Assembly (NCBI RefSeq): GCF_024298765.1
Contig: NZ_CP101210.1
Direction: 5' to 3' (one strand)
Length of the DNA: 64,000 nt
Source: Escherichia coli
GTDB taxonomy: Bacteria > Pseudomonadota > Gammaproteobacteria > Enterobacterales > Enterobacteriaceae
Under the pieces are notes generated by a model, which saw only the letters and a list, made by a program, of their open reading frames with translations, ran no database searches and was not told the origin of the DNA. Position numbers and translations under genes: made by a program. Positions within the stretch are counted from its first letter, which is position 1; each line of letters begins with the position of its first letter. Shown here piece by piece: positions 17,687 through 19,321 of the stretch.

Positions 17687-18241
17687 ATGCTTATTGGCTA
17701 TGTACGTGTGTCAACAAATGACCAGAACACAGATCTACAGCGTAATGCGCTGAACTGTGCAGGATGCGAGCTGATTTTTGAAGACAAGATAAGCGGTACA
17801 AAGTCTGAAAGGCCGGGACTGAAAAAACTGCTCAGGACATTATCGGAAGGTGACACTCTGGTTGTCTGGAAGCTGGATCGGCTGGGGCGTAGTATGCGGC
17901 ATCTGGTCATTCTGGTTGAGGAGTTGCGCGAACGTGGCGTTAATTTTCGCAGCCTGACGGATGCTATTGATACCAGCACACCGATGGGGCGTTTTTTCTT
18001 TCATGTGATGGGTGCCCTAGCTGAAATGGAACGAGAACTGATTGTTGAACGAACAAAAGCTGGACTGGAAGCTGCTCGCGCACAGGGACGAATTGGTGGA
18101 CGTCGTCCCAAACTTACACCAGAACAATGGGCGCAGGCTGGGCGATTAATTGCATCAGGCGTTCCTCGCCAGAAGGTGGCGATCATCTATGATGTTGGTA
18201 TATCGACACTGTATAAGAAGTTTTCGGTCGGAGATAAATGA
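17687..18241 (+). CDS. pin: Serine DNA invertase of the Pin/Gin/Cin/Hin family
   Basis: 184 aa from ATG 17687 (GGGAGA upstream). MLIGYVRVSTNDQNTDLQRNAL... is nearly identical to e14 Pin as I remember it. The catalytic Ser is in VRVSTNDQ, and there is a C-terminal HTH. Confidence 0.9.
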   Translation: MLIGYVRVSTNDQNTDLQRNALNCAGCELIFEDKISGTKSERPGLKKLLRTLSEGDTLVVWKLDRLGRSMRHLVILVEELRERGVNFRSLTDAIDTSTPMGRFFFHVMGALAEMERELIVERTKAGLEAARAQGRIGGRRPKLTPEQWAQAGRLIASGVPRQKVAIIYDVGISTLYKKFSVGDK

Positions 18242-18279
18242 AACCGTAGCACGTCGTATGCAAGATCGTGCTGCGGTTT
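18241..18279. repeat. Hairpin module copy A (13-bp stem, 13-nt loop) between pin and the GIY-YIG gene; probable bidirectional terminator
   Basis: aaaccgtagcacg (18241-18253) pairs with cgtgctgcggttt (18267-18279): 12 Watson-Crick pairs plus one G.T. Homologous to copy B at 19264-19321. Confidence 0.6.
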
Positions 18280-18298
18280 ATGCTTATCACTTAAAGAC

Positions 18299-19072
18299 TC
18301 AAAAATTAGGTGAGTAACGGACCGGGGACATAGCTCCTTTTTTTCTTAATTCATCTGGTATTTTTTTTCCAAGATAAAGATTTGCTATTTCAGGTGGGGC
18401 TTCTCGACCTTCAAAACCATAGCGAGAACTTTGTGTTGCCTCAAAGTCAGGATCCTCGTCCCAGTATTTCATCGTAGGGAAATTTTCACGTGTTGATTTG
18501 AGCCATTTATCAGCAATGAAAACCCCTCGAACGATCCCCCTTACAGTAGCAAGAATGACTTCTGCTTGGCTGGCGCGAGAGACATTAATGCGCCAGCTAA
18601 ATCGAACCGCATCATAAAGCTCTGAATCCTTTGCACTTCTGTTAACGGAAATCATTAATGCTTTATGATGAAATATTATGGTTTCGGGTTGATATGTTGC
18701 TATCAACTCTTTGACATGCGCGGCGCCGAATTCATTGCTGCCAGCACCATTCATGATATTCGTTAACCCAGGGTAGGCATCAATAAGTGCAGCTTCAACT
18801 TCGTACGCCGTCTTTTCATCAGTCATTCCGTGTCGATGGATGACATGGATAACTTCAAGTCCTGCTAACCTTATTTCTCTAATTTGCTTTAGCTTGTTGC
18901 TCAGTAACTCGTCATCATCAGTCGCTGCCACTTCACCGCGCATATGGGCAAATACGCGGTTACCTTTGCCTTTCCCTACATAGAAGGTGCTTCCGTCCCT
19001 CGGATCAATCAATCGGTATACATACCAGCCAAGGTGTTCAATTACTCCAGAAGGAAACTCAGTAATATCCAT
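18299..19072 (-). CDS. GIY-YIG nuclease-domain protein with an uncharacterised C-terminal domain (257 aa)
   Basis: The N-terminal ~110 aa carry WYVYRL...[16 protein letters not shown]...YEVEAALID...N, i.e. GIY and YIG-type hairpin motifs, a conserved Arg and a catalytic Glu. The C-terminal ~130 aa have no motif I recognise. Visibly lower GC than the flanking phage genes. Confidence 0.75.
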
Positions 19073-19107
19073 TTTGCAATATCTATGAAGAATTATTTGT
19101 GAGACGT

Positions 19108-19136
19108 ATATTAATGATCATTGCAAGGGCTCACAA
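19108..19136 (-). promoter_or_regulatory. Candidate sigma70 promoter for the GIY-YIG gene (TTGTGA-N17-TAATAT on the minus strand)
   Basis: Read on the reverse complement, with the -10 element at 19108-19113 and the -35 element at 19131-19136. A 10-bp palindrome, aatgatcatt (19112-19121), overlaps the spacer. Prediction by eye only. Confidence 0.3.
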
Positions 19137-19263
19137 CCAGTAGTGTTGAGAAAACCATCGGAGAAATGAGGCTAAGCCTTTGAATTTACATAGTACAAAA
19201 AAGATACTTTTCCTCATAATGTGAGCTAATTTTATGTTTCGTTTGATGATTGGACCGGTCTCG

Positions 19264-19321
19264 AAAACCGTAGACACATAGTATGCGTTAATTTATGAAC
19301 AAACTACTTGTCTGCTGTTTT
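19264..19321. repeat. Hairpin module copy B (13-bp stem, 32-nt loop) upstream of the methylase gene
   Basis: aaaaccgtagaca (19264-19276) pairs with tgtctgctgtttt (19309-19321), with one mismatch and one G.T. Both arms and part of the loop (gtatgc) are homologous to copy A. Confidence 0.55.

Follow-up and report, generated by a model that had tools for sequence, protein, structure and literature searches.

A CMoRE defense gene in an Escherichia coli prophage lies between copies or part-copies of a terminator-like hairpin at which cargo of different prophages was probably joined

RESULTS

Genes and features at the right end of the prophage

The DNA analyzed here (the window) is a stretch of 64,000 nucleotides from an Escherichia coli genome (contig NZ_CP101210.1), and the part of concern is the right end of a prophage whose contractile tail is of the Mu/SfV type. 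The tail-fiber genes, with an invertible segment, are followed by pin, a first hairpin (HP1), an open reading frame for a GIY-YIG protein, a second hairpin (HP2), genes for a Dcm-type methylase and an EcoRII-type endonuclease, ssrA, and smpB (Table 1). The upstream neighbor of the GIY-YIG unit, pin, is annotated as pinE in matching E. coli genomes. We focus on the unit of about 1.02 kb that carries the GIY-YIG gene between the two hairpins. As shown below, the unit encodes the defense nuclease CMoRE and HP1 belongs to a widespread family of terminator-like hairpins; it is likely that the unit is a phage moron and that cargo blocks of different prophages were joined at this hairpin.

Table 1. 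Features of the GIY-YIG unit and its surroundings, in window positions
Feature	Position	Strand	Basis
pin, serine DNA invertase of the tail-fiber inversion system	17687..18241	+	Pfam Resolvase (E 6e-52) and HTH_7
HP1, member of a conserved prophage hairpin family	18241..18279		Fold, family model R1, Rfam CssrB match, breakpoints
CMoRE / PD-T4-3, GIY-YIG type IV restriction endonuclease, 257 aa	18299..19072	-	PADLOC, PDB, Pfam
Upstream region of the GIY-YIG gene, presumed promoter site	19073..19251	-	Conserved together with the gene in all E. coli loci; GC 0.36
19-nt serU (tRNA-Ser CGA) attachment-core fossil GGACCGGTCTCGAAAACCG, right end of the module	19252..19270	+	Identical to the serU anticodon arm
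HP2, putative composite hairpin	19264..19321	+	Fold, 21-mer match, allelic variants, E2 identity
Diverged copy of b-end (the usual sequence behind the family hairpin)	19322..19358	+	About 18 of 26 positions match in a MAFFT alignment with hairpin-downstream sequences from 8 loci
Dcm-type cytosine-5 methyltransferase of the EcoRII-type restriction-modification system, next cargo module	19479..20912	+	Pfam DNA_methylase (E 4e-78) and DNA_meth_N
EcoRII-type restriction endonuclease	20947..22161	-	Pfam EcoRII-N and EcoRII-C
ssrA 3'-end attachment core, right end of the prophage	22390..22425	-	ARAGORN and Rfam tmRNA; tmRNA gene 22390-22752 (-)

The GIY-YIG gene encodes CMoRE

The product of the GIY-YIG gene is CMoRE, also known as PD-T4-3. 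It matches the PADLOC PD-T4-3 profile over the full length (E 4.7e-140, residues 1-256 of 256) and the E. coli O157:H7 protein of PDB entry 9U75 over residues 1-257 (E 2.4e-171). Pfam places a LEM-3_GIY-YIG domain on residues 28-110, and the catalytic motif of the GIYxY…YIG type is present in the translation (GWYVYRL…FYVGKG); NCBIfam returned no match for the protein. PD-T4-3, since renamed CMoRE, belongs to the type IV restriction endonucleases and degrades DNA with 5-hydroxymethylcytosine (5hmC) or its glucosylated form (5ghmC); DNA with cytosine or 5-methylcytosine (5mC) is not degraded, and T4 with ordinary cytosine is fully resistant (PMC12923530). In its native host, PD-T4-3/CMoRE is active against Tevenvirinae (bioRxiv 10.1101/2024.12.20.629700). 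By extension from these published, near-identical proteins, the window protein would be expected to cleave DNA containing hydroxymethylcytosine (hmC) specifically and to protect against T-even phages.

In the window, the gene for this hmC-specific type IV enzyme adjoins that of the EcoRII-type restriction-modification (R-M) system (18299-22161), and together the two would cover unmodified and hmC-modified phage DNA. CMoRE/PD-T4-3 homologues with 55-60% amino-acid identity are common in metagenome-assembled genomes of Planctomycetota, Acidobacteriota, Chloroflexota, Actinomycetota, and other phyla (loci L013-L084 of our locus set), a conservation across phyla that is unusually high, and some genomes hold two of them (for example, CP054186.1, Providencia heimbachae).

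HP1 and HP2 are related hairpins

HP1 is exactly what a preliminary description of this DNA had reported, a hairpin with a 13-bp stem directly after the pin stop codon. Its arms, aaaccgtagcacg (18241-18253) and cgtgctgcggttt (18267-18279), enclose a loop of 13 nt (18254-18266), and its first base doubles as the final base of the stop codon. As RNA of the plus strand the element has a predicted folding energy of -23.6 kcal/mol (z -5.58), and none of 200 shuffles was as stable; the minus strand gave -17.4 kcal/mol (z -3.43). The stem is flanked by the tails TTTCATTTAT on the minus strand and TTTATGCTTATC on the plus strand. The second hairpin, reported some 1,023 bp further on with a loop of 32 nt, is present as well. 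Its arms lie at 19264-19276 and 19309-19321, and its fold is weaker than that of HP1 (-17.8 kcal/mol, z -2.75, 1 of 200 shuffles as stable), with a marginal z of only -1.81 on the minus strand.

The alignment of the two hairpins at 19 of 22 positions with one gap also proved to be real: the 21-mer at the 5' end of HP1 is found again at 19265 with 2 substitutions and 1 insertion, at a spacing of 1023-1024 bp. Because an equally close match to the 21-mer arose in just 1 of 100 block shuffles of the whole window (both strands), the likeness is not attributable to chance. A repeat finder run on the window did not report the pair, which it missed because the shared exact word is only 9 nt long.

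A hairpin family of most E. coli prophages includes HP1

To place HP1 among related elements, a 50-nt query around it was searched against 5426 complete E. coli genomes. The family hairpin occurs in 4257 of these (about 78%), at a maximum of 7 places per genome and at about 6700 places altogether. It is also found in HK97, HK106, phi80, phiP27, Stx2a phages, and Rac, and partially in lambda; the copy in K-12 lies at the end of Rac, between ynaM and uspF. It occupies two sites, one right behind the stop codon of pin or of a tail-fiber assembly gene, the other beyond the cargo, some hundreds of bases before the prophage ends. The preliminary description had envisaged a pre-existing hairpin that recurs beside different cargo genes, and an element of this spread agrees with that expectation. 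Among 33 distinct copies, compensatory changes (C-G/U-A, A-U/G-C) were seen at 4 of the 13 stem pairs. Double-change cells numbered 23, compared with 11.3 ± 2.4 in column shuffles, none of 500 shuffles reached this value, and the signal collapsed in slid registers. A covariance model of the family (R1) scored HP1 at 61.6 bits; HP2 was not recovered by the model at E<=10. Two weak matches to the model outside the prophage, at window positions 39941-39982 (14.8 bits) and 40890-40939 (14.7 bits; E about 0.1), are probably unrelated hairpins.

HP1 also aligns with positions 141-180 of Rfam family RF02799 (CssrB, a Shigella small RNA), which form its 3'-terminal hairpin, at 31.5 bits, below the gathering score of 76. 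A full-length copy of CssrB in L177 (151.6 bits) has the family hairpin as its 3' end; unlike it, the window has the 3' hairpin only, and the small RNA body of 140 nt is absent. A literature search on CssrB returned unrelated papers only, and searches for an earlier account of the hairpin yielded nothing more specific than general remarks on hotspot units delimited by terminators. The hairpin is absent beside the GIY-YIG homologues of eight other enterobacterial genomes, from Providencia, Yersinia, Buttiauxella, Citrobacter, Raoultella, and Klebsiella (76% nucleotide identity).

An A-run precedes the stem in all contexts, and the hairpin therefore has a U-run behind it on the minus strand. The cargo genes that adjoin the hairpin are usually on that strand (the GIY-YIG gene, S-adenosylmethionine [SAM] methyltransferases, a GGDEF protein, and a hypothetical protein). 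From these features of sequence and arrangement we infer that the family hairpin is most likely an intrinsic terminator, or an insulator, between the rightward late operon and leftward cargo. HP1 itself is likely a bidirectional intrinsic terminator, serving pin on the plus strand and the GIY-YIG gene on the minus strand. Its stem is stable and rich in G+C, with covariation across the family, and it is followed by a U-run on the minus strand (TTTCATTTAT), as are the copies behind tail-fiber assembly genes (TTTTTCTTTTTT). The U-run on the plus strand is weak in HP1 (TTTATGCTTATC) and good in HP2 (TTTTTCTGT).

The borders of the GIY-YIG unit fall at the hairpins

Module borders were compared in 81 loci, consisting of 79 IMG/VR proviruses and two genomes. 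Many of these loci are close relatives, that is, near-identical E. coli prophages, and the locus counts given here are therefore counts of sequences and not of events. In a megablast comparison of positions 17650-19500 with E. coli genomes, the partial matches began or ended at the hairpins. The left breakpoint lies at 18239-18241 in 21 loci, which are those without pin upstream, and the right breakpoint at 19273 or 19286. The gene upstream is pin in 60 loci, a lambdoid tail-fiber assembly gene in 14, and something else in 1. HP1 is divided between its neighbors, its 5' arm and loop staying with the upstream gene and its 3' arm, CGTGCTGCGGTTT, with the GIY-YIG gene. On the right, the flank falls into three classes of about equal size, namely, the EcoRII module, a complete 3' half of tRNA-Ser(CGA), and an intact family hairpin followed by the sequence usually found behind it, here called b-end. 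The right end of the GIY-YIG module stood upstream of the EcoRII R-M module in all sampled E. coli records but one (junction at 19359). About 840 E. coli genomes carry the module. With such recurrent, sharp borders at the hairpins, the unit is a discrete module, in line with the cassette-like character first ascribed to it.

Empty alleles were also found. In L003, pin is followed by one hairpin and another gene, and in L215, L266, and L252 it is followed by one hairpin and b-end. The 3' arm of the L215 hairpin, CGTGCTACGACTGG, is exactly that of the second hairpin in filled alleles, and the exchange therefore maps within the 24-nt invariant core formed by the inner stem and the loop. An empty site consisting of pin, one hairpin, and then the methylase or other cargo had been anticipated. 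Pin with one hairpin and other DNA was observed (L003, L215, and L252), whereas the order of pin, hairpin, and methylase was looked for in the sampled records and not found. Two hairpins without the gene, an arrangement that would have spoken against a cassette, did not occur at that spacing in any of the compared loci lacking the GIY-YIG gene.

Two of the loci show further arrangements of the module. The provirus contig L252 holds the 3' end of pin twice, in opposite orientations and some 3 kb apart (2360-2408 on the minus strand and 5387-5434 on the plus strand), one followed by the GIY-YIG module and the other by the empty hairpin and b-end. In L289 (E. coli O157:H7 Z1831, 4453001-4466000), the module lies in a decayed prophage whose ends are thrW and a serU 3' fragment with serU-side DNA, which suggests a rearrangement between prophages at the thrW and serU sites.

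HP2 is a candidate recombination seam

A comparison of alleles indicates that HP2 is best read as a recombination seam, which still folds and is followed by a T-run, and not as a simple duplicate or a target-site duplication. Three pieces meet in it: 19 nt from the start of a serU attachment core, the 5' part of a family hairpin, and a second element (E2). Positions 19264-19286 represent the 5' half of the family hairpin, 19288-19309 are of the E2 type, and 19309-19321 form the 3' arm, after which the T-run begins. The 22 nt at 19288-19309 are identical (22/22) to E2 of L209 and L192, and at least 45 nt are clearly related; in other prophages, E2 is located about 70-85 nt downstream of an intact hairpin (L209 and L192; 18 of 107 distinct contexts overall). 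In the alleles L087, L123, and L124, the family homology within HP2 stops after GTATGC. HP2 had also been considered as a full family copy; this was dropped, since the covariance model misses it, and the allelic comparison was used instead. The reported homology of both HP2 arms to HP1 is thus confined to the 5' half, up to GTATGC, whereas the remainder is E2-like. The 3' arm may be a very diverged hairpin arm, or it may merely be complementary to the 5' arm.

The leftmost piece of the seam is the remnant of the serU attachment (att) core. In the window, this core is cut after AAAACCG and is followed by the 5' arm of the family hairpin. About 26 loci have the same left flank but extend it through the entire 3' half of tRNA-Ser and on into native serU downstream sequence, and both the native serU locus and the expected junction pair of true serU prophages were confirmed. 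Because its flank runs into full serU in these loci, the GIY-YIG gene is identified as the last gene before attR of a serU-integrating phage.

A similar junction was found at the far end of the EcoRII module. In the window this module adjoins the real ssrA gene. Four loci (L086, L092, L096, and L130) and 347 complete genomes share this flank but end it at TGGTGGAGCTGGCGGGAGTTGAA/ACCGCAG (the slash marks the junction); here the ssrA core is represented by its first 23 nt, as far as the T-loop, and is joined to a third family hairpin (HP3) with b-end. In NZ_CP046000, a prophage at thrW has the order pin, HP1, GIY-YIG gene, 19 nt of serU fused to HP2, R-M system, 23 nt of ssrA fused to HP3, and b-end, with yagP'/paoD about 450 bp beyond. 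Decayed ssrA-like cores precede hairpins in other contexts as well, with at least 2 different left arms. Because the serU core is fused to HP2 and the ssrA core to the third hairpin, the modules appear to be the terminal cargo of different prophages joined at the hairpin.

To the right of the EcoRII module in L107, L129, L156, and L157 there is a degenerate ssrA-like core (TGGGCTGGCGGAGTTTGAAT), behind which lies an AT-rich arm resembling the P' arm of the window phage; this looks like a decaying, unsplit attP inside prophages that are integrated elsewhere.

Other cargo found between hairpins includes an SDH-protease-like gene, a Bro-N gene with an HTH/M78 pair, a SAM methyltransferase gene, a gene for a GGDEF protein, and a block of 5.4 kb. 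A SAM-dependent methyltransferase gene (L165 2459-3532; L167 2550-3523) has on one side the hairpin behind a tail-fiber assembly gene and on the other a partial repeat of the 3'-terminal part of the same assembly gene. Cargo can therefore also be bracketed by repeats that exceed the hairpin in length.

DISCUSSION

Proposed origin of the cargo island

In the explanation that we favor, the unit of about 1.02 kb would be a one-gene defense moron, transcribed leftward and low in GC. HP1 is one copy of a hairpin that most E. coli prophages carry behind their tail-fiber or pin genes and again beyond the cargo, and this hairpin most likely insulates the late operon, which runs rightward, from the cargo genes, which run leftward, or terminates transcription between them. 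A block consisting of hairpin, cargo, and att core would represent the terminal cargo of one prophage type. A phage of the serU type would have supplied the block of pin, hairpin, CMoRE, and att core, and a phage of the ssrA type the block of hairpin, EcoRII R-M system, and att core; joined at the hairpin, these blocks would make up the cargo island, with HP2 as their seam and not as a copy made by insertion. As for the route, we infer that the joining could have come about in one of two ways, by recombination on short homology in the 24-nt invariant core of the hairpin or by the action of an integrase on an att core and the hairpin's 5' edge. Phage recombinases of the Red or Rad52 type use short, imperfect homology. 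An integrase route is suggested because both junctions lie at the 7-nt strand-exchange loop and the fused sites keep an inverted-repeat core.

Several observations weigh against parts of this explanation. The number of independent recombination events behind the compared loci is small. For the proposed terminator, a U-run on the plus strand is absent from most family copies (…GGTTGGCTGG), the loops of 13 nt in HP1 and 32 nt in HP2 exceed the 3-8 nt of textbook terminators, and a terminator scan of the window listed neither hairpin. The loop of the family is also unusually conserved for a mere terminator, although this conservation is overstated because the pattern used to sample the hairpins fixed part of the loop. 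A promoter scan of 19073-19251 (minus strand) found no consensus sigma-70 site for the GIY-YIG gene. Finally, a reciprocal or uncollapsed product of integrase-mediated insertion was looked for and not found.

Alternative explanations

The attachment-core fossils would also be expected if the 5' edge of the hairpin, an A-run plus ACCGCAG, mimicked the right half-site of tRNA-type att cores and served as a secondary attachment site. A phage would then enter a resident prophage behind its tail-fiber operon, and homologous collapse would leave stacked cargo with an att-core fossil before each hairpin. We regard this as possible but rather unlikely. The fossil junctions lie exactly at the 7-nt integrase strand-exchange loop (serU CTCGAAA/ACCG, ssrA AGTTGAA/ACCGC), the fused sites retain the inverted-repeat core GCGGG-7nt-ACCGC, and the hairpin edge GAAAACCGCAG differs from serU GAAAACCGGAG by one base. 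The thrW prophage of NZ_CP046000, including its attR, has exactly the predicted order, and the ssrA-like cores before hairpins occur with at least 2 left arms and in decayed forms. However, the same junctions are expected from microhomology-mediated or Red-type recombination, and they could also be favored by selection for an A-run before the hairpin, where it would serve leftward termination. The search for an uncollapsed tandem or reciprocal junction found none, and the counts (347 genomes with the fused form and 9 in which the form with this arm is integrated at ssrA) do not fix the direction of descent. That the hairpin edge is a recurrent secondary site for integrases of the tRNA/tmRNA type, working as a ratchet that stacks terminal defense cargo and leaves the serU19/HP2 and ssrA23/HP3 fossils, is a slightly more doubtful proposition again.

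The preliminary description had also raised the ideas of an attC-type recombination site and of a homing-endonuclease target duplication, and neither fared well. In the former case, one-hairpin cassettes would be moved by a dedicated recombinase through hairpin-by-hairpin exchange. The filled alleles do resemble hybrid sites, the left one combining the resident 5' arm and loop with the incoming 3' arm and the right one the reverse; several different cargo blocks lie between hairpins, and the stem covaries while the loop is conserved. Yet no recombinase is common to the loci, since pin is absent where the upstream gene is of the tail-fiber assembly type and the integrases differ. IntI, attI, and the GTTRRRY core are lacking, most cargo blocks start 70-150 nt of conserved sequence beyond the hairpin, and the GIY-YIG homologues of Providencia, Yersinia, Klebsiella, and others have no hairpin; moreover, 24-40 nt of identity suffices for ordinary phage recombination. 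The cassette-like modularity of the unit is supported and an attC-like mechanism, which we consider improbable, is not. Presence/absence polymorphism at one site with sharp borders would fit a free-standing homing endonuclease, one that cleaves the empty allele with its single hairpin and inserts a copy of its own gene, and the protein has a weak match to a homing endonuclease family in PHROG (E 0.004). This reading is, for practical purposes, ruled out because the protein is CMoRE (9U75), which cuts only 5hmC or 5ghmC DNA: the published enzyme does not act on DNA with C or 5mC, to which corresponds the full resistance of T4 with ordinary cytosine (PMC12923530), the gene is active as a defense in its native host (bioRxiv 10.1101/2024.12.20.629700), and homing is not expected to produce a 40-bp duplication, HP2 being better explained as a composite seam. 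A chance likeness of HP1 and HP2 among AT-rich terminator-like sequences, to which the short exact word, the silent repeat finder, and the failure of the family model on HP2 might point, has a similarly negligible probability, given the shuffling result and the intermediate alleles that connect HP2 base by base to intact family copies.

Relation to known systems

In the favored explanation, in which a CMoRE moron and other cargo blocks were joined at a terminator-like hairpin, the unit invites comparison with several known systems. Phage morons were reportedly described by Juhala and colleagues and by Hendrix and colleagues in 2000. Like a moron, the unit is a single extra gene between genes that are adjacent in related phages, of lower GC, with a putative terminator of its own, probable expression from the prophage, and a benefit to the host. 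Empty alleles (pin, hairpin, and b-end in L215 and L252) and filled alleles both exist, and the GC content is 0.36-0.44 in the module and cargo versus 0.49 in pin. Of the private promoter and terminator of a moron, the terminator-like HP1 is present, whereas a sigma-70 consensus is lacking in the region upstream of the gene. The unit differs from a moron in that its terminator is not private to the gene but is a conserved hairpin of most E. coli prophages, and in that an att-core fossil, joined to a further copy of this hairpin, forms the far border.

Conserved boundary or linker sequences and relaxed homologous recombination in lambdoid mosaicism have reportedly been treated by Clark and colleagues in 2001 and by De Paepe and colleagues in 2014. 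As with those sequences, short conserved borders serve here as crossover points between otherwise unrelated segments; unlike them, the element in the window is a structured hairpin, kept by compensatory changes and reused several times in one cargo island. Integron cassettes with their attC sites are similar in that cargo units are parted by imperfect inverted repeats with hybrid-looking flanking sites. They differ in that the neighbors here are a serine invertase, a methylase, and EcoRII, with no integron integrase or attI and with prophage integrases of the phage type; in that the borders GGTTT/ATGCTT and CGAAA/ACCG are without a GTTRRRY core and gene orientations are mixed; and in that the sequence of the hairpin is conserved, not its structure alone, and the borders often lie beyond it. 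The partial serU and ssrA cores that bound successive cargo blocks recall tandem islands at tRNA and tmRNA genes. Unlike in such islands, the fossils are internal to a prophage that has its integration site elsewhere (at ssrA or thrW); each stops at the crossover loop, where a phage hairpin takes the place of a complete tRNA 3' end.

At the protein level, the gene product does not differ from published CMoRE/PD-T4-3 (PMC12923530; PDB 9U75 and 9U7U), with a full-length match and a GIYxY…YVG motif (GWYVY…FYVGKG); the genomic setting of CMoRE is not described in that paper. Phage hotspot islands have been found to be divided into small terminator-delimited units (bioRxiv 10.1101/2024.10.15.618418), and the unit fits both this description and the moron concept. 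The gene and the idea of terminator-bounded phage cargo are already known, which makes the finding largely an ordinary one, and the hairpin is partly captured by Rfam. In the literature searched, no earlier description was found of one conserved hairpin as a border element across most E. coli prophages, of compensatory changes that preserve it, or of att-core fossils fused to it. One hairpin, present in about 78% of complete E. coli genomes, marks where prophage cargo islands begin and where their internal seams lie, offering a simple sequence landmark for finding and delimiting defense or virulence cargo beside tail-fiber genes. The att-core fossils against the hairpins would record the joining of cargo from phages with different integration sites, and they suggest a testable route by which prophage defense islands grow.

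Prophage ends and neighboring features

A second ssrA attachment core was located at position 988277 of the near-identical genome NZ_CP027219.1, 44 kb leftward and beside the integrase region. The prophage is bounded by a direct repeat of about 36 nt of the ssrA 3' end with one mismatch (window 22390-22425; NZ_CP027219.1 988277-988312; L168 3278-3313), and the element measures about 44 kb. A second integrase gene lies just outside the left repeat, and an older ssrA island has therefore probably been displaced. The hairpin with b-end had been considered as the P' arm of the ssrA attP, but this does not hold for the window phage, since in NZ_CP027219.1 the arm at the opposite end of the prophage is AT-rich and without the hairpin.

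About 130 nt downstream of the tmRNA gene, within phage DNA, a strong terminator-like hairpin, AAAAGCCCGC…GCGGGCTTTT, is followed by a T-run (window 22239-22262, minus strand); judging by its sequence and position, it looks like a replacement terminator for ssrA supplied by the phage. At the other side of the cargo, convergent alternative tail-fiber C-terminal and assembly genes (window 16119-17660) adjoin pin and form an invertible host-range segment of the Mu Gin/e14 Pin type, both orientations of which were seen among related loci.

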